Shown here piece by piece: positions 18,435 through 53,605 of a DNA stretch of 53,605 nt (positions within the stretch are counted from its first letter, which is position 1; each line of letters begins with the position of its first letter). The translations under genes were made by a program, and so were the position numbers. Source of the stretch: Actinomycetota bacterium (GTDB taxonomy: Bacteria > Actinomycetota > Actinomycetes > S36-B12 > UBA5976); the NCBI GenBank assembly GCA_041158245.1, contig JBEBBT010000134.1:1-53605 (forward strand), in the 5' to 3' direction. The notes under the pieces were generated by a model. The model made no database searches, was not told where the DNA came from, and was given only the letters and a program-made list of their open reading frames with translations.

Positions 18435-19431
18435 CGACATTCTCACCCTAGGTTCACAGCCTGATCAAACTCAAATTAGCGAAATTCTGGACAATCACAA
18501 ATGGCTATTAACTAAATCAGATTTTGAAAAACTTGAAAAAGCAATCGCAAACGAATTGTCAGGATATGGGCCACTCAATTCAGTGCTGTCTGAAAACGTA
18601 ACGGATGTTTTAGTCAATTCGCCAGATTCTGTTTGGGTTGATAGTGGCGGTGGCTTAACCCACTTCACGAATATTTTTGAAAGCGCTGATGAGATTGCTT
18701 TTTTAGCAAGACGCTTAGCTAGTTTGGCAAACTCCCGCTTAGATGATGTCGAACCATTTGTCGATGGGCTCCTTCCCGATGGAACTCGTCTACACGCCTT
18801 ACTTCCTCCGGTGGCAGGAAAGTGCGCCAAAATTTCTTTGAGGTTTCCAAGTCAAAAAATCATTCCGATTGAATCGTGGATGTTGGATTTAAATGAAACA
18901 GAGTTAGATTTACTGAACCGAGTGGTTCGTGGTGAATTGTCATTTGTAATCTCCGGAGCAACCGGTTCGGGCAAAACAACTCTACTCAAATCGATTATCA
19001 ATGCGCGGCCATCTGGACAAAGAATTTTGATACTCGAAGAAGCTTCCGAAATTCAGCTAACTAAACCCAACATAATTTCATTGGTCGCGCGCAACCCGAA
19101 CACAGAAGGGATGGGGGAGTTCACACTGCAGAAACTGGTTCGTCAGTCTTTAAGAATGCGACCAGATTCAATTGTGATTGGCGAAGTTCGTGGAATTGAA
19201 TTAATTGATTTTCTTTTAGCGGTGTCGAGTGGACATGGTGGTTCTGGCACCACAATCCATGCAAACCCTGGTTTTGTTGAACGGCGAATTGGGATTCTGG
19301 CTGGTCTTGCAAAAATGGATTCAAAGTTCGCTGTCGATTTGTTTAAAAGTTCGATAGATGTCGTGATTCATTGTGAACGTAGAAATGGGAAAAGAATTAT
19401 TACCACGATTGCGGAAAACCATCAGTGTTGA
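18397..19431 (+). CDS. tadA: TadA/CpaF-family secretion ATPase (T2SSE)
   Basis: Walker A GATGSGKTT, Walker B ILILEE, and GHGGSGTTIHAN (His box). The start is uncertain; as drawn it overlaps the upstream ORF by 38 nt. Confidence 0.85.
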   Translation: MQTFAEIFHIVISDILTLGSQPDQTQISEILDNHKWLLTKSDFEKLEKAIANELSGYGPLNSVLSENVTDVLVNSPDSVWVDSGGGLTHFTNIFESADEIAFLARRLASLANSRLDDVEPFVDGLLPDGTRLHALLPPVAGKCAKISLRFPSQKIIPIESWMLDLNETELDLLNRVVRGELSFVISGATGSGKTTLLKSIINARPSGQRILILEEASEIQLTKPNIISLVARNPNTEGMGEFTLQKLVRQSLRMRPDSIVIGEVRGIELIDFLLAVSSGHGGSGTTIHANPGFVERRIGILAGLAKMDSKFAVDLFKSSIDVVIHCERRNGKRIITTIAENHQC

Positions 19432-41411: not shown

Positions 41412-41998
41412 AGATCGAAATAATGAATGAAGCGGATGAAAATTCCGTTTATAAATTAATGCACTTCGCTTTTGTTAGTGAAGGGAAAACAATCGAAAAT
41501 CTTTTACGAGATTTGTTTGTTCACCCTGCCGGCAAAGCTGGATGTGGGATTGTTGCAAGAGATGAAAAAAAGGTTGTTGGCTTTGTAATGCTGAGTATTG
41601 GCTTACTTGATACATTCGAAGAAAATGTGAAAGTGGGGATTCTTGGACCTCTAGCGGTTCACCCAGATTTTCAAAAACAAGGCATAGGCCAATCCTTAAT
41701 CGAAAGATTATTGGCTGAAGCAAAGCAGTTGCACTTGCCAATCGTGTTTCTTGAAGGGGATCCGGCTTATTACTCGAAAATGGGATTTGAGCCGGCAAAG
41801 AAATTCGGCATGCGAAAACCGTCAATACGAATTCCAGATGCGGCTTTTCAATGCATTTTGCTCGATGGATACGAGCCATGGATGCAGGGAACTGAGGTTT
41901 ACCCAGAACCATTTTGGACCAACGATTGTGTAGGCCTTCGCGATTCAGGATTTATCGCTTGGATAAAGCAAGAAGTTTCTGAAGGTCGCGAGCTTTAA
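41408..41998 (+). CDS. GNAT family N-acetyltransferase
   Basis: LAVHPDFQKQGIGQSLI contains the acetyl-CoA binding motif (Q/R-x-x-G-x-G/A). 4-nt overlap with the upstream gene. Confidence 0.75.
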   Translation: MKIEIMNEADENSVYKLMHFAFVSEGKTIENLLRDLFVHPAGKAGCGIVARDEKKVVGFVMLSIGLLDTFEENVKVGILGPLAVHPDFQKQGIGQSLIERLLAEAKQLHLPIVFLEGDPAYYSKMGFEPAKKFGMRKPSIRIPDAAFQCILLDGYEPWMQGTEVYPEPFWTNDCVGLRDSGFIAWIKQEVSEGREL

Positions 41999-42015
41999 AT
42001 TTCAGCTTTAAGGAC

Positions 42016-43200
42016 TTAGTTGTACACCGTTCCGTGTCCATTAACTTTGTAGACGCGAACGTAATCAATATAAGTTTTTGATGTTGTCCAGTTGCCCCAG
42101 AGGCCGCCGAAGCCACCACCTATTGGACCGATTGCATTGTTCAAAATCAAGAAGTATGGCTTGTTTCCTGGCCAAATCATGCCGTCGATGTTGTCTTTAG
42201 TAACTGTCCAAAAAGCAACTCGATCAACGTAAAGCGTCATCTGGTCTGGAGTCCATGCCAAACCAAATGTGTGGTAATCCTCGTAGAAGTTGTAAGACTT
42301 TGTCGTTTCGCCAAATTTATAGAAGTGGCCACCACCGCCATCTGCGTAGTGCAATGCAGCTGAGTTTCGTTTTGGTTGGTGTCCACCTTGTTCAGCAATA
42401 TCCATTTCACCAGAACGCGGCCAACTTACGCTTGTGATGTCTTGGCCCAGCATCCAAAATGCCGGCCAGTTGCCTTCGCCTTGTGGCATTTTTATTCGCG
42501 CCTCTATGTATCCGTACTTAAAGTTGACTTTGCCTTGTGTATCAAAACGACCACTCGTAAATGCACAGTTTGCGCCTAAACATGTTGCAGGTGCTGGAGG
42601 GGCTGAATTAACTCGAGTTGTAGTAATGACGGCTTTGCCGTTTTCAACTGAAATGGCTTCAGGGATGTACCACTGTGATTCGTTGTTGTGGCAAGTGCCA
42701 CCACCATTAGCACCACTATGACCGCAGTAGCGAGCCGTCCAATTGTCGGTATCAATCGAGCTTCCGGCATTGAATTCGTCAGACCAAATCATGTTGCCAA
42801 CTGTGAATCCTCCAGAAATTTCGGGTGTTATTTCAGATTCTGGCTGAGCAGGTGTTGTTATCAATCGTGTGACAGTCTTGACTCGATAGTCCTTGGAAGT
42901 CTGACGTAATTGAAATCTATAAGTGGTTTCGCCTTCAAGGCCCGTGATTTGGATCGGGCTTTTCAAAGTCTTAGTCCAATTGCGACCATCAATTGAATAA
43001 TGGATTGCTCGAATAAGTTTTGATTTTGCAGTGTCTTTTTTATATTTGACAACTATCTTGTCATGAGAGGGAGCACTGACCTCAATGATTGTTGGTGCTT
43101 TCAATTTTGCTGTGTATGGAGCAAGAGCAGTAGAAGGAATAGTTGCAAGCACAGAAAATAAAGCAACTAGAGTCAACAAGAATTTAATTTTCATTTTCAT
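42016..43200 (-). CDS. Secreted GH16 glycoside hydrolase (beta-1,3-glucanase/laminarinase-like) with N-terminal Fn3/Ig-like domain
   Basis: Signal peptide, then WSDEFN, WPAFWMLG and the catalytic GEMDIAE (ExDxxE). Confidence 0.8.
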   Translation of the reverse strand: MKMKIKFLLTLVALFSVLATIPSTALAPYTAKLKAPTIIEVSAPSHDKIVVKYKKDTAKSKLIRAIHYSIDGRNWTKTLKSPIQITGLEGETTYRFQLRQTSKDYRVKTVTRLITTPAQPESEITPEISGGFTVGNMIWSDEFNAGSSIDTDNWTARYCGHSGANGGGTCHNNESQWYIPEAISVENGKAVITTTRVNSAPPAPATCLGANCAFTSGRFDTQGKVNFKYGYIEARIKMPQGEGNWPAFWMLGQDITSVSWPRSGEMDIAEQGGHQPKRNSAALHYADGGGGHFYKFGETTKSYNFYEDYHTFGLAWTPDQMTLYVDRVAFWTVTKDNIDGMIWPGNKPYFLILNNAIGPIGGGFGGLWGNWTTSKTYIDYVRVYKVNGHGTVYN

Positions 43201-43206
43201 TTTCCT

Positions 43207-43220
43207 TCATACCGATTTTG
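43207..43220. promoter_or_regulatory. Weak half-matching copy of the locus palindrome just upstream of GH16 gene 1
   Basis: tcatacCGattttg: the right half matches the TGAAAsCGrTTTCA consensus and the left half is poor. Confidence 0.2.
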
Positions 43221-43226
43221 TGGTTC

Positions 43227-43268
43227 TAGCGAAAAGTCCCCCGGATTACCCCGAGGGACTTTTCGCTA
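43227..43268. other. Perfect 14-bp stem-loop between two same-strand genes (terminator/attenuator or RNA processing site)
   Basis: TAGCGAAAAGTCCC (43227-43240) pairs perfectly with GGGACTTTTCGCTA (43255-43268). The 14-nt loop is C-rich, and no U-tract follows on the transcribed (minus) strand. Confidence 0.5.
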
Positions 43269-43284
43269 TGAGAGTGAAACGAAC

Positions 43285-44244
43285 CTAGGAGACCTTCACC
43301 TTTGTTGAGTCACTGAACACGACGGTTGAGCCGCCTTCATTTGTTGCAGTAACACGAACACGGATGAACTTGCCCTTTTGAGCAGCCTTAAGAGTTAGCT
43401 TCTTTGCTTTTGCACCCTTGATTGCAGAGCAATCAGATGGTTGTGCAGAAGGATTGTTTGTGCCCTTCTTTGTGCAAGCAAACCAGCGGTAGGCGATAGT
43501 TTCTTCACCTTGTCCTGAGAATGCGTATCCCTTTGCAGTTAGAACTTTTCCAACCTTTACAGAACCGCTGATAGCAGGGTTCTTGGTCTTGACTGGAGCA
43601 GAAACTAGAGAAGGCAGTTCGGCACCATTGAGACCAATGTTGTCGATTGCATAAATCTGACCTGAAACCGCTTCAGTACCGCTTGCTGCTGATCCGAAGT
43701 TTGGAATCAAAACAACTGTTACGTAGTCAACATCTCCATTTAGATCAGAGAGTGTTTGGGTGTAGCGATTCCAGCCTGGAGCAGCATCAAAAGAAATTTC
43801 CTTGTTGATGTTTGGGTCTGCTGCTTCAACCTTTAGCAAAACGCTAACGTCATCAGCTTCTGGTGAATATAGATCGAATTCGATAGTTGCTGATGTGCCA
43901 GTTGAGACTCGGCGATCATCAAATTTTGCAAGAACTACACCAGACCATGCCTGACCATTCTTTGGCAAAGCCAAAACTTTTCCTGAAGCGCCATCAATTG
44001 TGCTTCCGTCAACGATTGCTGAAACCATTCCTTCGAATGAACCTTGTGGGTCACCATCTGCATTTGTTCCGGCAGCGTCTGCACCAATTGCATCGCCATC
44101 TTCGAATGTGATTAGTGTTTCAGTCGCAGGCAATGTGTTTGCAGCTGATGCTGGATTAATTGCGACAAGTGCGCCCGCGCCAACAAGTGACAAAGCGCTA
44201 AGTAGAGCGAAGAACTTTGTTCCTAGCTTTGTTGTTTTAGCCAT
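43285..44244 (-). CDS. Secreted protein: CBM-like beta-sandwich domain + C-terminal Ig-like domain, unknown function
   Basis: The start is moved to the internal ATG at 44244 (GGAAGGA SD), giving the signal peptide MAKTTKLGTKFFALLSALSLVGAGALVAINPASA. The ...GQIYAIDNIGLNG ending is typical of CBM4/9-like modules. The Ig-like repeat has the pattern AYRWF...GKFIRVRVTA. Confidence 0.55.
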   Translation of the reverse strand: MAKTTKLGTKFFALLSALSLVGAGALVAINPASAANTLPATETLITFEDGDAIGADAAGTNADGDPQGSFEGMVSAIVDGSTIDGASGKVLALPKNGQAWSGVVLAKFDDRRVSTGTSATIEFDLYSPEADDVSVLLKVEAADPNINKEISFDAAPGWNRYTQTLSDLNGDVDYVTVVLIPNFGSAASGTEAVSGQIYAIDNIGLNGAELPSLVSAPVKTKNPAISGSVKVGKVLTAKGYAFSGQGEETIAYRWFACTKKGTNNPSAQPSDCSAIKGAKAKKLTLKAAQKGKFIRVRVTATNEGGSTVVFSDSTKVKVS

Positions 44245-44310
44245 TGGTTTCCTTCCAAAGAGGCCGAATGAATTTTGGTCGTGCTCACACACGTAGGCGA
44301 AAAATAGCCC

Positions 44311-44374
44311 TGAAAGCGGTTTTATGGAAGCGGTTTCACGAGCCAAAATTGCATGTGTTGTGAAACCGTTATCA
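44311..44374. promoter_or_regulatory. Three copies of a 14-bp CG-centred palindrome (putative LacI-type operator)
   Basis: tgaaagCGgtttta (44311-44324), tggaagCGgtttca (44325-44338) and tgaaacCGttatca (44361-44374). Confidence 0.5.
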
Positions 44375-44392
44375 AGTTGCTCGAAACAGCAA

Positions 44393-45538
44393 TTAGTGGG
44401 TGATTAGCTGGCCTAAGCCATTGACTGAGTAGTAGCGAACATAGTCGATGGTGAACTGGCTTTCCATGAGGTCAAAGTCGATTAGGCCGCCCCAAATGCC
44501 ACCCATGGCTAGATTCAAAATCAGATATTGCTCTGAGTCGAAAACCCAGTCAGCATCCACTTTCTCGTATGTGTAGTACTTCTTGCCATCCACATACCAG
44601 TCGATCTTGTCCTCGAACCACTCAATTGCGTAGATGTGGAAATCTTCGGTTGTGCTTGGGTTAGTAACGCTCCAGTTTCCACCACGCCCAGGGCCGGATG
44701 AAAGCGGGCCATGAGCGGTACCCCAAAGACCGCCTGGCCAAGATCCTTTTAATTCCATGATGTCGATTTCGCCGCAGAATGGCCAGCCCTCTTCATCAAT
44801 ATTCGCGCCCAGGGTCCAGACTGCTGGCCAAGTGCCTTCACCCTTTGCTCCCTTGGCGCGTACCTCTAGTCGTCCGTGAAGAAATCCGAACTTATCTTTC
44901 GTCACAATCTTCGAGCTAATCCAGTGGCAATCTCCGTAATAGCAATCGTAGTTTGATGCACCAGTCTTGGTAGCAGTAATTACTAATTGGCCATTGCCAT
45001 TTAGTTTTCCTTGTGAATTCAAGTAATACTGTCGTTCTTCATTTCCCCAACCAGGGTTATCAAACTCAGGAGCACTTCCGTCTCCCTCTTGAGCTGTCCA
45101 ATTGATTGAATCAGCAGTTAAGCCACTCTCACCAGAAAATTCGTCTTGCCAAAGTAATTCGTATTTGCCAGAAAGAATTCCAGTTTGAATAAATTTGCGT
45201 GGTGCACTAATTGTTTTGGTTTTAAAGCCATTTTTCGTCAAGGTGAATCTTGCGGTGACAAATTTTCCACGATCTGCAGATTTCAAAACGTATGTGGTTT
45301 TCGTTGCACCTGCAATTGGATTACCTGCACGAAGCCACTGAATCTTCTTTTTTACTCCTGCAGTTTTAACTCTAGGCAAATTAACTTTGAGTGTGGTTTC
45401 TTGCAAGTTTGTGAACTCGATAGAAATGGAACCGCTAGTTGCAATTTTGGCTGCAGCTGATGCCCCACTTATTTGGGACAGCGAAATTGCAATTGCAATT
45501 GCAAACGCAGCGATTCCATTTCTATTCGAGATTTTCAT
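44393..45538 (-). CDS. Secreted GH16 laminarinase-like glycoside hydrolase with N-terminal Ig-like domain
   Basis: Signal peptide, WQDEFSG, WPAVWTLG and the catalytic GEIDIMELKG. Confidence 0.85.
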   Translation of the reverse strand: MKISNRNGIAAFAIAIAISLSQISGASAAAKIATSGSISIEFTNLQETTLKVNLPRVKTAGVKKKIQWLRAGNPIAGATKTTYVLKSADRGKFVTARFTLTKNGFKTKTISAPRKFIQTGILSGKYELLWQDEFSGESGLTADSINWTAQEGDGSAPEFDNPGWGNEERQYYLNSQGKLNGNGQLVITATKTGASNYDCYYGDCHWISSKIVTKDKFGFLHGRLEVRAKGAKGEGTWPAVWTLGANIDEEGWPFCGEIDIMELKGSWPGGLWGTAHGPLSSGPGRGGNWSVTNPSTTEDFHIYAIEWFEDKIDWYVDGKKYYTYEKVDADWVFDSEQYLILNLAMGGIWGGLIDFDLMESQFTIDYVRYYSVNGLGQLITH

Positions 45539-45543
45539 TTTTA

Positions 45544-46947
45544 CTACTTAACCTGTGCTTTAACGGTTTTCTTAACGCCATTGCAGATTACAACCACATT
45601 GTGCTTACCTTTTTTGAGTTTGAAGGTGTAGGTAATTGTGGTTTTGTCAGCAGCAGGAGTCTTGGTGTACTTCTTACCGTTGATTGTAATTTTCACAGAT
45701 TTTCCGTGAGGGTTATCAACTTTTACTGACACTTTTCCTTTAGCTGGAGTGACTTTAATTGCAGTCTTTGCAGCTGTTGGATCTGTGTAGAAGTGGAATT
45801 CCACCATGTCAGCAGCAACGTTGCTTGCTCCGGTCACAGTTGGGAATACCTGTGAGAAAAGCGCACCTGTGTCTGCGGTTAAGAATTCATCAATCCAAGA
45901 TGTTGGCTTGGCTTGACCAGTTAGATCAGTACTACGAGCTTTGAAAAGTACGTTACCGAATGCATCGGTCGTGCCTGTCCAAACTGCCTGATCTGCATCA
46001 GCTGCAGCAGATGTGTTTGTTGCAGTCACACCATCAGTCAATTTTGCGTTGCTTCGGCTGTTTGCCTTTCCAACACTCAGTGTTACCTCTTGGCCAATAA
46101 CTGGATATCCGTTGCCATCAACAATGTGGTAAGTCAGATTGATGCGACGTGATGCTGGTGCATACTTTTGGTAGAAGTGCAATCCATCTGTGTACCAGTC
46201 GTTGGTCACGGTGAATAACTCTTCTAAATCAGTACGACGGACAGAATTTGTGTCTTCAAAAACTGGTGTTGCTACACGAGCAAGCACTTCGTTCATGTCG
46301 TAGGTAGGTTCACTTGGTTCTTTGTAGAAGTGAATTTCAGTCATGTCTGCTTGGTCAATTGTTTGTCCAAGAACTTCTGGATAGATTTGAGTGTACAAAG
46401 AAACATTGCAATCAAAGTCAGAAACGTGTCCGCGTTCAGTGAATGAAACTGGCTTTGGTTCACCACACATATCCTGAGTATCTAGGCTTTCCATTGTAAA
46501 AGTCACAAAACCAAATGCGTCAGTCAATGCGTTAACCTGCAATTGATCCAGTGGGGCTTTGTCAACGCCATCAGTTGGACCTTGACCGTTTACTTTGACG
46601 ATTGAGTTAGCTACTGAGTAACCCTTATTAACGCGCAACTTAACGTTTGTGTTTGCAAGTGGTTCGTCAGTATCAGCATCAGTTACTAAGTAAGTGAAGT
46701 GAATTGTTGAGCCAGCTGGCGCCCAACCTTGACGGAAGGTGAAACCTTCAGCAAACCAGTTCTGACGAACCCAGTCAGCTTCCATTTCGGTGTCGCGCCA
46801 AGAATTTGTGTCGTCTAGTTGTGGAGTGATTAGGCGAATCTCCACATTTTCTGGCAAAGCACTTGCAGCACTAGAAAACGCTGGGATTGTTGCGAGTGCA
46901 AGCAATAGCGAAATCCAAAGTGCAACTTTGCGACTTACTTTTTTCAT
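45544..46947 (-). CDS. Secreted protein with two ~180-aa tandem repeats and a C-terminal Ig-like domain, unknown function
   Basis: The start is moved to the ATG at 46947 (AGGAAA SD), giving the signal peptide MKKVSRKVALWISLLLALATIPAFSSAASA. The track ORF's N-terminal extension overlaps the permease gene. Repeat anchors are TP..DTNS.R, TDAFG.V.F and ADM.E.HFY..P. Confidence 0.6.
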   Translation of the reverse strand: MKKVSRKVALWISLLLALATIPAFSSAASALPENVEIRLITPQLDDTNSWRDTEMEADWVRQNWFAEGFTFRQGWAPAGSTIHFTYLVTDADTDEPLANTNVKLRVNKGYSVANSIVKVNGQGPTDGVDKAPLDQLQVNALTDAFGFVTFTMESLDTQDMCGEPKPVSFTERGHVSDFDCNVSLYTQIYPEVLGQTIDQADMTEIHFYKEPSEPTYDMNEVLARVATPVFEDTNSVRRTDLEELFTVTNDWYTDGLHFYQKYAPASRRINLTYHIVDGNGYPVIGQEVTLSVGKANSRSNAKLTDGVTATNTSAAADADQAVWTGTTDAFGNVLFKARSTDLTGQAKPTSWIDEFLTADTGALFSQVFPTVTGASNVAADMVEFHFYTDPTAAKTAIKVTPAKGKVSVKVDNPHGKSVKITINGKKYTKTPAADKTTITYTFKLKKGKHNVVVICNGVKKTVKAQVK

Positions 46948-46985
46948 TTCATTTCCTAACTGATTGTTGAAATAAAGCTTTGGGC

Positions 46986-47843
46986 TTAGCCCTTGACTGC
47001 GCCATCCATAACGCCTTGGACCAACTTGCGTCCAACCAAGACGAATAGGAGTAGCAATGGAGCGGTCGCCATGAATGCGCCACCGAGATTCAGTGCGTAG
47101 TCGAGTACGTAACTCGCCTTCAACTGATTTACCGCAACCTGAGCGGTGAAATTGTCCGGACTTGTTAAAACAAGCGTTGGCCACAAGAAGTCGTTCCAGG
47201 AAGCCAAGAATGTAAATAAGCCAAGTACAAAAGAACTTTGACGAATGATTGGTAACACCACATGCCAGAAAGTTCTGAGCACACCAGCCTGATCGATGCT
47301 TGCCGCTTCGAGTAGTTCGTTTGGAACTTGAGCATCAATCACTTGCCGCATCCAGAACACACCAAAAGCAGAAACCAACGCTGGAACGATCAAAGCAGTG
47401 AGGCTGTCGATCCATCCAAGGCGAGAGACCATGATGAACAACGGAATGATGCCAAGTTGACTTGGAAGCATCATGGTTCCGATGACAAACAAGATCATGA
47501 ATCTGCGTCCACGGAAGTTGAGCTTTGCAAATGCAAAGCCAGCAAGTGCAGAGAACAACACCTGCGCAACCGCTACCGTGACACCAACAAACGCAGTGTT
47601 GAAAAGTGCACGAGTGAAGTCAACAACCTCATAAACGTGACCAATCACGGTTAAGAATCTTGGACCTGGGGTCAAAGATGGTGGCATTTTTGAAATTTCT
47701 TCAGTGCCGCTTGATGCAACTACAAACATCCAGTAGAAGGGGAATACTGAAAGGAAAGTAATCAAGCCAAGCGACAAGTAGCCACCGATTCTTACTCGGT
47801 GCCAACCTGGGGCAAAGTCATTGCGGAGGAAAGGCATTTTCAT
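46986..47843 (-). CDS. Carbohydrate ABC transporter permease (MalG/CebG-like)
   Basis: 6 TM helices and the EAA loop EAASIDQAGVLRTFWHVVLP. Confidence 0.85.
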   Translation of the reverse strand: MKMPFLRNDFAPGWHRVRIGGYLSLGLITFLSVFPFYWMFVVASSGTEEISKMPPSLTPGPRFLTVIGHVYEVVDFTRALFNTAFVGVTVAVAQVLFSALAGFAFAKLNFRGRRFMILFVIGTMMLPSQLGIIPLFIMVSRLGWIDSLTALIVPALVSAFGVFWMRQVIDAQVPNELLEAASIDQAGVLRTFWHVVLPIIRQSSFVLGLFTFLASWNDFLWPTLVLTSPDNFTAQVAVNQLKASYVLDYALNLGGAFMATAPLLLLFVLVGRKLVQGVMDGAVKG

Positions 47844-48826
47844 CGTGCGTCCTCACTTGCTAGTCGGCGAGTAATCGCAAAGTTGATTAGTGAAATTATC
47901 AAAACAATAACTGTGATTGCGATACCAATTGCTGCACCGTAACCCCAGTTAATGTTTGTAAACGCCTGCTCGAATAAGTAGAGAGTCAAGGTTGAGAACT
48001 GACGATCGCTACCGCCTGTTGCACTACCAAACACAAGAGGTTCAGCAAAGACTTGCAGGCCACCGATGGTTCCAACAATCAATACGAAAGTGATTGTGTT
48101 CTTTAGCTGTGGCAAAGTCACATAGCGGAATGTTTGCCAGCGGCTTGCACCATCAATTGAAGCCGATTCGTAAAGTTCGTTTGGAATTGCCAACATCGCT
48201 GCCAAGAAAATTAGCGCGTTGTAACCAACCCAGCGCCAAGTAATCATGGTTGCAATTGCAATGTGACCTGGAATTGTTTGTTCTTGAAAATCAATATTGT
48301 CAAAACCGAAAAGTCCAATAACCCAGTTGATCAAACCGTAATCGCGACCAAATAGCTGTTGGAAGATAATCGCTACTGCAAGAACAGAAGTGATGTTTGG
48401 TACCAAAAGAATTGTTCGCCACAGAGTTTTTGCACGCAAAGTTGGATTGCGCAAAATTGATGCCAAACCAATTGCCATCGCCATTTGTGGGAAAGTAGAG
48501 AATGCCCAAATGCTAAAGGTGTTCTTTACCGATAACCAAAAGTTCTCGTCATGCCAAAGTCGAATGAAGTTGTCGGTTCCAACAAAGACTTGATATGTAG
48601 GGTCTAGTGGATCCCAAGAGTAAAAAGCGATGTAAACCGAGTAAACAACTGGTAGTAAACCAAAAATGATGAACATGATGAAGAACGGTGCAGTGAATAA
48701 GTAAGCCCACCGGCCATTCAATGAACGAACACCGTTTACTTTTTCAGCTTTTGGTTTTTTATTTTGTGGTTTCCATGGAGAGGGAGCCGCAAAAATGCGG
48801 CTCCCCTTTGTTGCTTGTTGCGTCAT
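47840..48826 (-). CDS. Carbohydrate ABC transporter permease (MalF/CebF-like)
   Basis: 6 TM helices and the EAA loop ESASIDGASRWQTFRYVTLP. 4-nt overlap with the downstream permease. Confidence 0.85.
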   Translation of the reverse strand: MTQQATKGSRIFAAPSPWKPQNKKPKAEKVNGVRSLNGRWAYLFTAPFFIMFIIFGLLPVVYSVYIAFYSWDPLDPTYQVFVGTDNFIRLWHDENFWLSVKNTFSIWAFSTFPQMAMAIGLASILRNPTLRAKTLWRTILLVPNITSVLAVAIIFQQLFGRDYGLINWVIGLFGFDNIDFQEQTIPGHIAIATMITWRWVGYNALIFLAAMLAIPNELYESASIDGASRWQTFRYVTLPQLKNTITFVLIVGTIGGLQVFAEPLVFGSATGGSDRQFSTLTLYLFEQAFTNINWGYGAAIGIAITVIVLIISLINFAITRRLASEDAR

Positions 48827-48828
48827 GC

Positions 48829-50157
48829 TTAGCCGCCAACTGCGGTTGCAATTTCAGCAAGTGCCTTCTTCCATGCTGCAGCTGGTTTTTGCTTACCAGC
48901 CGCGATGCGAGCCAATGCGTTTCCGAAGGCGCTGTCAATCGCGCGTTGTTTCTTGCCTTCAAAAATTGGCTTCAGTTTTGAAACACCCTGTGCGTAAATC
49001 TTTCCGATTGGTGCGTTGTTGAAGAATTCAGATTTGAAGTTCAACAATGCTGGATCGTCGTACAGAGAGGTTGTGGTTGGGAAGAATCCGTAGGTCTTGA
49101 AAATCTTTAGCTGTTGAGCAGGTGCCAAGTACCACTGGATGAAGTCCCATGCAGCTTGACGATTTGCAGGATTGCCAGAGGTAGGAATTGAAAGTTGTGT
49201 TCCACCTTGGTTTCCGCCACCACCAGGAATAGCAGCGACATCCCACTTACCAGCTGTCTTTGGTGCTTGTTGCTTGATGTAATCAAGCATCCAAGCTGGT
49301 GCAAGGATGACAGCGAACTTGCCTTTTGTCATACCTACGTTCCAGTCAGAAGTGAATTGACCAACACGAGTTCCGATTTTCTTATTCAGCGCAACGACTG
49401 TCGCATCGAATGCGTCTTTAACGGACTTGTTCTTTTTGTAGATCAATACACCGTTTGGTGTGTTGTTATTACGGTAGTACTTTTCTTTACCTTGATTTAG
49501 TTTCGCAGCAAAGATTGTTCCTGCGTTATCCATAAATCCAAGTCCAGCCTTCTTTTCTTTAGCTGAAAGAGAGTTCATGTACTTCTCACCGACTGCAATA
49601 AATTTTTCCCAAGTCGGCCATAGCTTGCCAACTGCTACTCGATTAGTTGGAAGGCCTGCTTTTTTGAACAAGTCTGTGCGGTAGGCAACTTGAAGTCCGC
49701 CGACATCTGTCGGAATACCAATTACTGAACCGTTGTATGCCACGCCATTTGCCCAGCGCCATGGTAGGTAATCTTTTTTAATTGTCTTGGCACTCTTTTT
49801 GCCAACAGTTGTTTTCATGTTTCGAAGATCGACGAAGCATTGTGGGTATGAACGCCAGTAACCCGAGTATGCAATTTCAATTGCTGTGATGTCAGGTCCA
49901 CTTGAACCAGCAGTACATGCGGTTACAAGGTCGCGTCCATTTAGCGGATCCAAATCTGATTTCTTAATGTCGAGTGTGATTTCAGGATGCAGTGCTTTGT
50001 ATTCACGCACTAGTAGTGGCTGAATAACGTTACCGAACGTCCAAATCTTTAAAGTCTTTTCACCTGCTGCTTTTGCTGGTGACAAAGCTGTGTTTGATGC
50101 GATTAGTGATGTAGCCACTAGTGCGGATACCAAAAGTATCCGGAGTTTTGCCGACAT
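48829..50157 (-). CDS. Extracellular sugar-binding protein of ABC importer (family 1 SBP)
   Basis: The start is moved to the ATG at 50157 (AGGAGAG SD), giving a signal peptide MSAKLRILLVSALVATSLIASNTALSPAKA. Size and position before two sugar permeases support the call. Confidence 0.8.
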   Translation of the reverse strand: MSAKLRILLVSALVATSLIASNTALSPAKAAGEKTLKIWTFGNVIQPLLVREYKALHPEITLDIKKSDLDPLNGRDLVTACTAGSSGPDITAIEIAYSGYWRSYPQCFVDLRNMKTTVGKKSAKTIKKDYLPWRWANGVAYNGSVIGIPTDVGGLQVAYRTDLFKKAGLPTNRVAVGKLWPTWEKFIAVGEKYMNSLSAKEKKAGLGFMDNAGTIFAAKLNQGKEKYYRNNNTPNGVLIYKKNKSVKDAFDATVVALNKKIGTRVGQFTSDWNVGMTKGKFAVILAPAWMLDYIKQQAPKTAGKWDVAAIPGGGGNQGGTQLSIPTSGNPANRQAAWDFIQWYLAPAQQLKIFKTYGFFPTTTSLYDDPALLNFKSEFFNNAPIGKIYAQGVSKLKPIFEGKKQRAIDSAFGNALARIAAGKQKPAAAWKKALAEIATAVGG

Positions 50158-50189
50158 TGACTCTCCTGGAAAATTGGATTTCAATCTTA

Positions 50190-50235
50190 TGAAATCGGTT
50201 TCTTGTGTGTATAGTTAATCGTGAAAGCGATTTCT
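50190..50235. promoter_or_regulatory. Two copies of the 14-bp palindrome in the divergent SBP/GH16 promoter region
   Basis: tgaaatCGgtttct (50190-50203) and tgaaagCGatttct (50222-50235). Confidence 0.5.
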
Positions 50236-50346
50236 TGGCAATACTTTTTAAGAGCAGGCCTTGGAATTGTTACCAAGTCGTCACCAATGCGGAATTTGCA
50301 GTTTGCGGATACTGTTTTGGCACGTTAATCAACTCGAGGAGCAGAA

Positions 50347-51213
50347 ATGAGTCGCAGCAAATTAGCGATAATTACGATCCAAACAGCCATTTTGGCTCTC
50401 ATTTCAATTGCATTTATCCCTAATTCAAATGCCGCCTCCGCACCACTGGCTAAGAAATACCTGTGGCAGGTTGAATTCAATGGCAAGGCCGGACAGGCGC
50501 CCTCGAGCAAGTTTTTCAAATTTAACACCGGTGGCGGTGGCTGGGGTAACTCCGAAGAGCAGTTCTACGTGAATACCCGAAAGACTTCTGCAACCGACGG
50601 CAATGGAAAAATGGTTTTCACTGCCTCCAAGATCTCATACGACTCCCCAAGCAGTGACAAGTACTTCCCCTACAAGTACAAGAGCGCTCGTATTTACACC
50701 AAGGGCAAACTCAGCTTCAAATACGGCCGAATGGAAGCAAGAATTAAGTTGCCTGCGGGTGTTGGAACTTGGCCAGCATTCTGGATGTTAGGAACTGATA
50801 TCAGTTCAAACACTTGGCCTGACTGTGGCGAAATTGACATCATGGAAGCAAAAGGATCGCTACCTAACACCACTTTCGGAACCATCCATGGCCCTGGTTA
50901 CTTTGGTGGCGGAGGAATTTCCGGTGGCACAACTTTGCAAACACCTTTGACTGAGGGCTATCACGTTTATGCAATAAATTGGAAGCCAAATTCAATCGAG
51001 TGGTACATAGATGATCAGCTTTATCACAGCGTCACAAAAGATCAAATTGCATCCGAGTGGGTATTCAACAAGAGATTCTTCTTGATTTTGAACCTCGCAA
51101 TGGGTGGATTATTTACTGGAGAAATTGATCCATCAATCGAAGAAACCAAGATGTACATTGACTGGATTCGTTATTCCAAGTTCGATGGATGGGGACAGGT
51201 TTACTACAAATAA
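50347..51213 (+). CDS. Secreted GH16 laminarinase-like glycoside hydrolase (catalytic domain only)
   Basis: Signal peptide ending NAASA, then WPAFWMLG and GEIDIMEAKG. GAGGAG SD. Confidence 0.85.
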   Translation: MSRSKLAIITIQTAILALISIAFIPNSNAASAPLAKKYLWQVEFNGKAGQAPSSKFFKFNTGGGGWGNSEEQFYVNTRKTSATDGNGKMVFTASKISYDSPSSDKYFPYKYKSARIYTKGKLSFKYGRMEARIKLPAGVGTWPAFWMLGTDISSNTWPDCGEIDIMEAKGSLPNTTFGTIHGPGYFGGGGISGGTTLQTPLTEGYHVYAINWKPNSIEWYIDDQLYHSVTKDQIASEWVFNKRFFLILNLAMGGLFTGEIDPSIEETKMYIDWIRYSKFDGWGQVYYK

Positions 51214-51236
51214 CCCTGTAAAAATAAGGGTTTTTG
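51212..51236. terminator. Weak bidirectional terminator between convergent GH16 genes
   Basis: AACCCT/AGGGTT 6-bp stem (51212-51217 and 51227-51232) followed by TTTT. Confidence 0.3.
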
Positions 51237-51239
51237 TAA

Positions 51240-52031
51240 CTATGGGTGAATTACTTCACCGACTCCATCAATTGAGTAAACGCGAATGTAATCAATTGCA
51301 AGTTCTGCATGGTTTAGCTCTGGATCAATTGAACCTGTGAAATTTCCACCCATTGCAAGATTTGTAATGATGTAAAAATCGTGGTTGTAAACCCATTCAA
51401 GTGGAGCAATTTCTTCCGCAGTATTTTTGTGGTACATCACGCCGTCATAAAACCAACGGATTTCATTTGGCAACCACTCAATTGCAAATTCATGATACTG
51501 ATCAAACAATTCATCTGGAGATTGGAAAACTAAACCTTTTCCGTTATCGCCAAAATAACCAGGCCCGTGCAAAGTTCCGTAGACAGAGTGCGGTTGATCA
51601 CCGCGACTTTCGACGATATCAATCTCACCGCATTGTGGCCATGGAACTGTTTCGATATCGGTTCCGAGCATCCAAAGCGCCGGCCAGGTTCCTAAACCGG
51701 ACGGCAGCTTCAAACGTGATTCAAATCTTCCGTATCGAAAATGAACTTTGCCGAGAGTCGTTAATTTTGCGCTCGCCCATTCAGCTTTTCCGTAATACGC
51801 ATCTGGCTGTAATCCTTCTGGGATTCGATCAGCTGAAATCACTAGATTGCCATTGCCATCGCATGCGACATTCTTGTCTGTGTAGAACTCGCGCTCTTGA
51901 TTTCCCCAGCCTGGAATCCCGTATTCAGAGCCGTCACCAAGATTGAAATTCCAAACAGCAGGGTCTGGAAGTGTGCCGCTTGGTTCATTGAAATCTTGTT
52001 CCCAAATTAACTTGAGTTCAGGTTGGCTCAT
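51240..52031 (-). CDS. GH16 laminarinase-like glycoside hydrolase without signal peptide (probably cytoplasmic)
   Basis: MSQPELKLIWEQDFNEP starts directly at the catalytic domain. WPALWMLG and GEIDIVESRG are present. Confidence 0.85.
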   Translation of the reverse strand: MSQPELKLIWEQDFNEPSGTLPDPAVWNFNLGDGSEYGIPGWGNQEREFYTDKNVACDGNGNLVISADRIPEGLQPDAYYGKAEWASAKLTTLGKVHFRYGRFESRLKLPSGLGTWPALWMLGTDIETVPWPQCGEIDIVESRGDQPHSVYGTLHGPGYFGDNGKGLVFQSPDELFDQYHEFAIEWLPNEIRWFYDGVMYHKNTAEEIAPLEWVYNHDFYIITNLAMGGNFTGSIDPELNHAELAIDYIRVYSIDGVGEVIHP

Positions 52032-52066
52032 GGCTTTGCCTTTCGTGAAGCGGGCTAAAAAGTATC

Positions 52067-52184
52067 ACATAACGATTTCATCAAGAAACCGATTTCACAC
52101 CCATATTTCTTGCAGTTTATGCTCGACGGACCTAGCCTACGGCAGGTGAAACCGATTTCACGGTTCACCGAAAAACCGCTTTCC
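52067..52184. promoter_or_regulatory. Four copies of the 14-bp palindrome in the divergent GH16/GH1 promoter region
   Basis: acataaCGatttca (52067-52080), agaaacCGatttca (52084-52097), tgaaacCGatttca (52147-52160) and aaaaacCGctttcc (52171-52184). Confidence 0.55.
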
Positions 52185-52217
52185 GCAGGCCAAACTTTCG
52201 TCAAGGAGCTTCCAAAG

Positions 52218-53605
52218 ATGATTAACAACTTCCCGGCAGACTTCAAATGGGGCGTTGCAACTTCAAGCTACCAAATTGAAGGGGCGACAAACAAAGACGG
52301 TCGCGGAGTAAGCATTTGGGACACATTCGCAGCCACACCAGGGAAAGTTGTGAATGGCGAAACAGGCGATTTGGCATGCGATCACTATCACCTTTTCAAA
52401 GAAGACATCGCACTAATGAAAAAGCTTGGTGTGCAGACATACAGATTTTCAATTGCATGGCCGCGACTTTTCCCGCAAGGCGACAAAGTGCGCGAACAAC
52501 GCGGTTTTGACTTTTACAATCGTTTGATCGATGAACTCATTGCCAACGGAATTGAACCAATGGCAACTTTGTATCACTGGGATCTTCCACAAACTTTGCA
52601 AGACCGTGGTGGTTGGGCAAATCGTGAAATCGTTGATCACTTCGTTGACTATGCGACTAGTGCAGTTGAAGCATTTGGTGATCGAGTTTCAAACTGGATC
52701 ACAATTAACGAACCATGGTGTGTTTCATGGTTAGGTTACATGCTCGGTGTTCATGCACCTGGTGTTCAAAATCTAGATCACGCAATTGCAGCTTCACATC
52801 ACACAGCTCTTGCTCATGGTTTAGCCACACGTGCAATGCGTAATGTGAATCCAAACTTCAAAATTGGTATTGCGCCAAACATGACCAACTACCGAGTTGA
52901 TGATCCATCAAATCCAGAACTAATGGAATTAAGTGGGTTGATGGACTCGCACATCAACCGCTGGTGGATTGAAGCTTTTACTCACGGTCAATATCCAAAG
53001 AATCTTGCAGACTTTTATGGTGAGCGCCTTCAAAAATATGTTTTGCCTGGAGACATGGAGTCACTAAAAGTGCAAACAGATTTTCTTGGCATCAACTATT
53101 ACAGCGACTCATTCATTGGAACTCCGCGTCCAGAAGATAAGCCGATGTCGGAAGGTGGACTTTTCCCGTTCCCACAACGTTCAAATGGAACGCCACCAGA
53201 ACCACATACCGACATGGGCTGGCCAATCACTCCAAACGGAATGCGGGACTTGTTAGTACGCGTTGCAAAGGATTGGCCAAGCATTAAAGAAATTGCAATT
53301 ACTGAAAATGGCGCTGCATACCCTGAAGGTCCGGACGAGAATGGCGAAGTTCAAGACCATCGCCGAGTTGAATTCCTCGAGTCTCACATTGAGGCCGTAG
53401 GTCAAGCGATCTCTGAAGGTGCTCCAGTCAAGCGCTACTACGCCTGGTCGTTTATGGACAACTACGAATGGGCTGAGGGCTACGCCAAGCGCTTTGGAAT
53501 TGTTCACGTGGATTTTGATACGATGAAAAGAACTCCAAAAGAGAGTGCGAAAGTCTTCAGTTCTATAATCCACTCTCACAGTTCGTTCTGGGAGACTGTC
53601 AGTCA
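52218..53605 (+). CDS. bglA: GH1 beta-glucosidase (3' end off-window)
   Basis: Not in the ORF track because there is no stop in the window. My own translation from ATG 52218 (AAGGAG SD) gives MINNFPADFKWGVATSSYQIEG..., the acid/base motif TINEPW and the nucleophile motif ITENG. The frame stays open to base 53605. Confidence 0.9.
   Translation, partial: MINNFPADFKWGVATSSYQIEGATNKDGRGVSIWDTFAATPGKVVNGETGDLACDHYHLFKEDIALMKKLGVQTYRFSIAWPRLFPQGDKVREQRGFDFYNRLIDELIANGIEPMATLYHWDLPQTLQDRGGWANREIVDHFVDYATSAVEAFGDRVSNWITINEPWCVSWLGYMLGVHAPGVQNLDHAIAASHHTALAHGLATRAMRNVNPNFKIGIAPNMTNYRVDDPSNPELMELSGLMDSHINRWWIEAFTHGQYPKNLADFYGERLQKYVLPGDMESLKVQTDFLGINYYSDSFIGTPRPEDKPMSEGGLFPFPQRSNGTPPEPHTDMGWPITPNGMRDLLVRVAKDWPSIKEIAITENGAAYPEGPDENGEVQDHRRVEFLESHIEAVGQAISEGAPVKRYYAWSFMDNYEWAEGYAKRFGIVHVDFDTMKRTPKESAKVFSSIIHSHSSFWETVS

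Follow-up and report, generated by a model that had tools for sequence, protein, structure and literature searches.

The DNA considered here is a stretch of 53,605 nucleotides from an Actinomycetota bacterium (Actinomycetes; S36-B12; UBA5976), referred to below as the window; it is the entire contig C134 (JBEBBT010000134.1) of assembly GCA_041158245.1, which comprises 1.2 Mb in 177 contigs, is 76% complete and has a GC content of 45%. In the glucan locus near the end of the window, a 14-bp palindrome with a central CG, TGAAANCGNTTTCA, recurs between genes. These palindromes are very probably the operators of a local LacI-family repressor of 336 amino acids (aa), whose gene is the last in a GH1-lacI operon and begins just past the end of the window; the probability of this reading is put at about 0.88. 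A preliminary description of the sequence had taken the repeats for LacI/GalR-type operators, and this is borne out on computational evidence, namely the even palindrome with its central CG, the adjacency of the regulator gene and the co-occurrence of the two. The clustering of the sites, the conservation of sites and spacing, the adjacency of the regulator and the association of motif and regulator across genomes are all computational observations.

Seven strong copies match TGAAANCGNTTTCA with no more than one mismatch and carry the central CG. They lie in three intergenic regions (44245-44392, 50158-50346 and 52032-52217) of 523 bp in total, where 0.003 such sites would be expected (Poisson p ~5e-22). 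In the whole 1.2-Mb assembly there are 14 matches at the same stringency (<=1 mismatch, central CG), and the seven outside the locus are all within long open reading frames (ORFs). Outside the locus the genome is thus not rich in the motif, which the preliminary description had named as an outcome that would count against it. Further regulon members in the organism's own genome were sought among the other high-scoring matches, but these lie deep in ORFs and none is credible; one more, which lacks the central CG and is located between two convergent gene ends, is not credible either. When the window is scanned at up to three mismatches, 34 matches are found against 24 expected, which is not significant. 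The signal therefore resides in the good copies and in their clustering.

The shape of the motif was examined using 28 sites pooled from five genomes. In TGAAA-N-CG-N-TTTCA, the 12 specified positions carry 1.1-2.0 bits each, with 1.7 bits at the central CG. The variable positions 6 and 9, previously given as S and R, are actually C/G/T and G/C/A, respectively, A being rare at position 6 and T at position 9. A weak preference lengthens the palindrome to 16 bp, (G)TGAAANCGNTTTCA(C), and the information content falls to ~0 bits within 3-4 nt outside the palindrome. Because of this drop, the sites do not belong to a longer dispersed repeat, and a miniature inverted-repeat transposable element (MITE) was likewise rejected, given that no information extends past ~16 bp. 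The idea that the repeats are chance matches, or a small dispersed repeat without a regulatory role, could draw on the count at up to three mismatches, which does not exceed that in shuffled sequence. It is effectively refuted by the statistics of the good copies, by the lack of an extended repeat unit and by the fact that sites and spacing are kept among genomes with diverged flanking DNA.

The window itself contains no regulator gene, as had been noted, and a repressor gene had been predicted to lie outside it, possibly just downstream of GH1. A contig from another sample, L034 (ena:ERZ27315730:k119_1018385; 14,035 bp), agrees with this prediction. It is 99.63% identical to positions 41830-53605 of the window (11,776 bp, blastn), as far as the window's final base, and runs on beyond it. 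On L034 the GH1 stop codon falls 7 nt past the window end and is followed, after a gap of 8 nt, by a gene for a LacI-family protein of 336 aa (L034:1234-2244, minus strand of L034), the start of which corresponds to position ~53621 in window coordinates, 16 nt after base 53605. The protein has the domains PF00356 (the LacI-type helix-turn-helix, HTH), PF00532, PF13407 and PF13377, the same as its orthologues in genomes G006 and G014, and it matches 75 LacI-family entries in the PDB. A LacI gene flanking the locus, a further expectation of the operator reading, is thus present on the near-identical contig and also in relatives.

The location of the gene in the organism's own genome can be narrowed down. 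The last 58 bp of L034 are identical (100%) to the end of the organism's own contig C38, and an aldolase at the C38 end is 99% identical to the aldolase beside the same genes on another contig, L037. Since L034 spans the GH1-lacI junction and its far end joins C38, the regulator is placed by sequence overlap in an assembly gap of ~2.2 kb between C134 and C38. A tblastn search of the organism's own assembly with the G006 regulator returned nothing. The missing regulator is thus the result of an assembly break at the GH1/lacI junction. The assemblies of several metagenome-assembled genomes (MAGs) of the genus break in or just after GH1 (window end 53605, G004:C41/C64, G007:C182/C145, G008:C24 and G010:C108), which suggests strain-level variation or a repeat at this point; a second GH1 paralogue (on C10 in the organism's own genome, 49% identity) is perhaps that repeat. 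After lacI, L034 encodes a predicted secreted protein of 319 aa (L034:231-1190), convergent with lacI and following a class-I aldolase gene. It has no Pfam match, and no operator lies upstream of it.

The association between motif and regulator was examined in 92 other genomes of the family. The LacI orthologue occurs in 20 of them (45-93% identity), and all 20 contain exact TGAAANCGNTTTCA, with 47 copies in total, or 2.35 per genome. In genomes without the orthologue, the exact motif is found in 12 of 70, always as a single copy, a rate similar to that of a reversed-pattern control. The co-occurrence is highly significant (Fisher p = 4e-12). The order of GH1 directly followed by the LacI orthologue is found in three genera: in G001, G002, G004, G005, G006, G007 and G009 of the same genus, in G022 (genus g5), and in G014 and G021 (genus g3). 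Genomes of g3 and g5 have paired sites, 23-24 bp apart, in a divergent region between GH16 and solute-binding protein (SBP) genes beside the LacI orthologue; in G022 this divergent region carries two overlapping sites 12 bp apart. Further sites in g3 lie upstream of large Ig-like surface proteins.

The four orthologues from genera g1 and g5 share one recognition helix, GVSEATVSRVLNG; in the g3 orthologue from G014, Glu is replaced by Pro. The hinge helix, NRIAAALASGKS, aligns with NAVARGLASKKT of CcpA and NRAARTLVTRRT of the structure 5ysz, and its Leu is conserved. In the established structures of LacI and PurR, the hinge-helix Leu inserts at the central CpG.

Site conservation in orthologous loci, a further point on which the operator reading depended, was also found. 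When the three control regions are aligned, the operators stand out as conserved islands amid diverged DNA, even in G002 and G008, where GH1 is just 66-69% identical. The operators also keep their centre-to-centre distances, at 14+36, 31-32 and 62-63 bp. Upstream of the gene for a secreted protein resembling a carbohydrate-binding module (CBM), the abutting pair is kept in G007. The two operators between the SBP and GH16 gene 3 have centres 32 bp apart, a distance of 31-32 bp being kept in G006, G007 and G002, and that at 50190-50203 is an island in four genomes. In front of GH1, the operator at 52084-52097 is an island in five genomes, and the best operator (52147-52160), whose centre is 63 bp away, has an invariant core in the same number, with a spacing of 62-63 bp kept.

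All the strings listed in the preliminary description were verified at their coordinates, but its count of nine to ten copies needs adjustment. Seven are strong, and two weak ones (52067-52080 and 52171-52184) are conserved in position: the former in G006 and G007, which makes it plausibly an auxiliary site of uncertain status, and the latter in G007 and, as a better copy of 16.4 bits, in G006. The tenth, at 43207-43220, was rejected as an operator, since it is not conserved; it scores 4.0 bits against the position weight matrix and in G007 has lost the central CG and gained or lost 2 bp. All nine retained sites are intergenic, between -33 and -157 relative to the start codons of the genes on either side, when the true starts 44244 (CBM-like gene) and 52218 (GH1) are taken from the gene calls on L034; mechanical ORF calling wrongly puts three of them in coding sequence.

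Several points weigh against the local repressor. Firstly, many LacI-family proteins have this motif as their generic optimum, one example being the cre box with its optimal palindrome TGAAAGCGCTTTCA (PMC5483248), and for that reason another paralogue could in principle bind it. Secondly, with an assembly that is only 76% complete, further regulon members or LacI paralogues may be missed. Thirdly, the regulator gene is not in the organism's own assembly and is deduced from a 99.63%-identical contig of another sample. Fourthly, single exact copies are also present in relatives, in a region with pullulanase and SBP genes and ahead of large Ig-like surface proteins. Fifthly, a scan for consensus promoters gave 7 promoter-like matches against 15 in shuffled sequences, and the only promoter-like match near an operator is TTCACA-18-TATGCT at 52094-52123. 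Finally, physical binding, repression rather than activation, the promoter positions and the identity of the effector are what we infer from the arrangement.

The isolated exact copies in relatives, which may mark additional regulon members or serve other LacI paralogues as operators, are found on L052 (G001:C10:8807), L051 (G009:C175:29947), L055 (G005:C194:16047), L056 (G008:C89:4091) and L026 (15878 and 19093-19129). Their contexts are divergent pullulanase/SBP genes, the upstream regions of Big_1, cadherin-like or fn3 surface proteins, and the upstream regions of proteins of ~700 aa without a Pfam domain.

The generic nature of the motif raises the alternative that the sites are cre-like boxes of a global CcpA-type regulator, or belong to another LacI paralogue, and that the neighbouring LacI protein is not the binder. 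The consensus is nearly identical to that of CcpA in Firmicutes, being essentially the optimal cre palindrome, and among solved structures those of CcpA come second in similarity to the regulator. This alternative is nevertheless very unlikely. CcpA is a global regulator that needs HPr-Ser-P, whereas here the good sites in the assembled genome are confined to one locus, and the presence of the motif tracks the patchy, GH1-linked LacI orthologue. The NCBIfam ccpA model TIGR01481 has a cut-off of 442 bits, and the regulator reaches 180.7. Furthermore, the sole other LacI-type HTH in the assembly, C92:7563-8504, has a divergent recognition helix (TASDALAG), has no Pfam match to a sugar-binding domain and is found among light-sensing genes.

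This C92 gene, which is cut at a contig end, was also considered as the regulator of the locus itself and rejected; its product is 34% identical to the orthologue over 53 aa only and is unrelated to the locus. It heads a same-strand run (C92:861-8504; L001 covers C92 6900-8506) of genes for a SOUL haem-binding protein, a heliorhodopsin, a photolyase-related protein (DPRP), a secreted repeat protein and a bacteriorhodopsin-like protein, and it may regulate this light-sensing cluster.

The reading of a local, inducer-released repressor is drawn from the match of these features to a survey of the LacI family. Among ~1,300 LacI-family factors, the sites are even palindromes with a central CG, most of them at -140 to -30 from the start codon; ~90% of the factors are local sugar regulators, of which about three quarters are autoregulated, and local regulators of catabolic sugar loci are nearly always repressors released by an inducer (PMC4052901). 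It might be argued that the same LacI protein binds the sites to activate transcription, or that it represses with the help of a corepressor, the ligand then promoting binding, given that a few family members, such as PurR, bind DNA only with ligand (PMC4052901). This is improbable, since the closest functional analogues, CelR, CebR and GlyR3, are inducer-released repressors (PMC3377646, PMC4358012, PMC5483248), and since the operators lie between promoter-like elements and start codons, as fits repression.

CebR of Streptomyces and CelR of Thermobifida fusca, which repress genes for cello-oligosaccharide uptake and cellulases, share much with the system described here. They are actinobacterial LacI-family local repressors with a 14-bp even palindrome and a central CG, their regulator genes lie in the cluster and are autoregulated, and the clusters contain an SBP, a two-permease ATP-binding cassette (ABC) importer without its own ATPase, GH1, secreted glucanases and carbohydrate-binding proteins (PMC3377646, PMC4358012). 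In contrast, the half-site here is TGAAA and theirs is TGGGA (TGGGAGCGCTCCCA), so that two of five positions differ (PMC4358012, PMC3377646), and the enzymes here are GH16 (laminarinase-like for the one compared), whereas theirs are cellulases; the Pfam scan found no cellulase family in the locus. The top solved relative of the regulator is 5ysz_A (E = 8.5e-67), followed by CcpA structures. The entry is titled only 'Transcriptional regulator, LacI family', and it is probably CelR of T. fusca with cellobiose. In the recognition helix, the residues that set specificity are SEA here and GRG in 5ysz. Because the half-site, these residues and the enzymes all differ, the regulator is placed outside the CebR/CelR orthologous group and probably has a different effector.

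Two further systems resemble the locus in other respects. GlyR3 of Clostridium thermocellum (celC-glyR3-licA) is a LacI-family repressor inside a glucanase operon with a GH16 enzyme, and it responds to laminaribiose and has 14-bp sites of the TGAANNCGNNTTCA kind (PMC5483248). However, it is from a Firmicute, its operon is without an ABC importer or GH1, and its operators are much more degenerate. The BglR regulon of Thermotoga maritima (bglREFGKL-bglB-lamA) matches the locus in gene content, since a single local repressor governs a laminarinase, a beta-glucosidase and the ABC importer of laminaribiose and cellobiose, but BglR belongs to the ROK family rather than the LacI family (PMC3750489).

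If the local LacI-family repressor acts as proposed, then without inducer three control regions would each have two to four operators filled by its dimers. One of these regions precedes the CBM-like gene, and the other two separate divergent transcription units, the SBP operon from GH16 gene 3 and GH16 gene 4 from GH1-lacI. Each HTH would read a TGAAA half-site, with the hinge helices inserted at the central CpG, and the bound repressor would stop RNA polymerase either at the core promoters or immediately beyond them, occluding divergent promoters. The candidate GH1 promoter at 52094-52123, which is suggestive only, has its -35 element within the operator at 52084, and the best operator, at 52147, lies downstream of it. 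Secreted GH16 endo-beta-1,3-glucanases would free oligosaccharides from a laminarin-type glucan, to be taken up by the ABC importer and cleaved by GH1. Given this pathway from GH16 laminarinases through the importer to GH1, the repressor would be released by a beta-glucoside disaccharide or oligosaccharide, most likely laminaribiose, with cellobiose or gentiobiose as possibilities. No operator was found on L034 between GH1 and lacI or directly upstream of lacI, so that lacI is presumably co-transcribed with GH1 and autoregulated from the operators that control the GH1 promoter ahead of it.

This proposed control would extend to four GH16 genes, the genes of the ABC importer and of two secreted non-catalytic proteins, GH1 and the gene of the repressor itself (Table 1). 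The preliminary description had drawn the regulon over the whole glucan block of 42-53.6 kb; this has computational support, with the qualification that GH16 gene 1, for which no credible operator of its own was found at 42016-43200, would belong to it by inference only, depending on read-through of the hairpin at 43227-43268. That hairpin, located between the CBM-like gene and GH16 gene 1, has a perfect 14-bp stem and is almost invariant in G007 while its flanks vary; no U-tract follows it. The substrate of the locus is most likely a laminarin-type beta-1,3-glucan, judging from GH16 gene 3, the GH16 of the locus that was compared with solved structures, because its closest solved relatives are endo-beta-1,3-glucanases/laminarinases (3atg at 1.3e-59, then 2hyk and 3azx).

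Table 1. Operator sites and genes of the glucan locus in window coordinates. Genes are from Pfam scans and gene calls on the near-identical contig L034; operator distances are relative to start codons.
Feature	Position	Strand	Details
Operator TGAAAGCGGTTTTA	44311-44324		1 mismatch; -67 to -80 from CBM-like gene start 44244; identical in G007 and L034
Operator TGGAAGCGGTTTCA	44325-44338		1 mismatch; abuts the 44311 operator, centres 14 bp apart
Operator TGAAACCGTTATCA	44361-44374		1 mismatch to the N-consensus; centre 36 bp from the 44325 operator
Operator TGAAATCGGTTTCT	50190-50203		-33 to -46 from SBP start (50157, -); -144 to -157 from GH16 gene 3 start
Operator TGAAAGCGATTTCT	50222-50235		-65 to -78 from SBP start; -112 to -125 from GH16 gene 3 start
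Weak candidate operator ACATAACGATTTCA	52067-52080		8.7 bits; -36 to -49 from GH16 gene 4 start (52031, -)
Operator AGAAACCGATTTCA	52084-52097		-53 to -66 from GH16 gene 4 start; overlaps -35-like TTCACA of candidate GH1 promoter
Best operator TGAAACCGATTTCA	52147-52160		Perfect match; -58 to -71 from GH1 start 52218
Weak operator GGAAAGCGGTTTTT	52171-52184	-	11.3 bits; -34 to -47 from GH1 start
GH16 gene 1	42016-43200	-	Pfam; 3' of conserved hairpin 43227-43268
Secreted non-catalytic CBM-like protein gene	43285-44244	-	Three operators upstream; no Pfam match
Putative operon SBP, permease 1, permease 2, BIg21 protein, GH16 gene 2	44393-50157	-	
GH16 gene 2	44393-45538	-	Pfam; L034 gene calls
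Secreted BIg21-domain protein	45544-46947	-	Pfam; L034 gene calls
Permease 2	46986-47843	-	Pfam; L034 gene calls
Permease 1	47840-48826	-	Pfam; L034 gene calls
SBP	48829-50157	-	Pfam; L034 gene calls
GH16 gene 3	50347-51213	+	288 aa; divergent from SBP operon; Pfam
GH16 gene 4	51240-52031	-	263 aa; divergent from GH1; Pfam
GH1 beta-glucosidase	52218-53605	+	Contig end removes last 7 nt; Pfam GH1 1.8e-161

A 22-nt block, GGAATTGTTACCAAGTCGTCAC (50264-50285), lies ahead of GH16 gene 3, in its leader or promoter; it is unique in the assembly and is kept in G006, in G007 and largely in G002. This block could be a promoter element, the site of a second regulator or a leader RNA element. An exact-protein lookup in public assemblies found the identical GH16 gene 4 protein on 7 contigs, L034 among them. 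The nearest public relatives of the genome are MAGs from lakes and rivers, labelled as Candidatus Nanopelagicales bacterium, Actinomycetota bacterium or Rhodoluna sp.

A more specific proposal is that the repressor is dedicated to sensing beta-1,3-gluco-oligosaccharides such as laminaribiose and that the multi-operator layout forms a cooperative switch. This layout combines the abutting pair, with centres 14 bp apart, and conserved distances of 31-32 and 62-63 bp, each approximating an integral number of helical turns. This proposal is tentative, its chances being judged somewhat less than even. If true, streamlined freshwater plankton would use the switch to express secreted glucan-binding proteins and laminarinases once algal storage glucan becomes available, and, as far as the literature searched shows, no LacI-family regulator of this sort would have been described in Actinomycetota before.

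Most likely, this is an ordinary LacI-family system in a textbook arrangement, newly documented for this lineage and not mechanistically surprising. Its value lies in annotation and ecology rather than in a new concept. Motif and regulator occur together in three genera, and the motif offers a means of annotating this regulon in related MAGs. For genome-streamlined freshwater actinobacteria, the result is a concrete regulatory model of the use of beta-1,3-glucan of algal origin, which specifies an operator sequence, a regulator and a regulon of ~11 genes in four to five transcription units.

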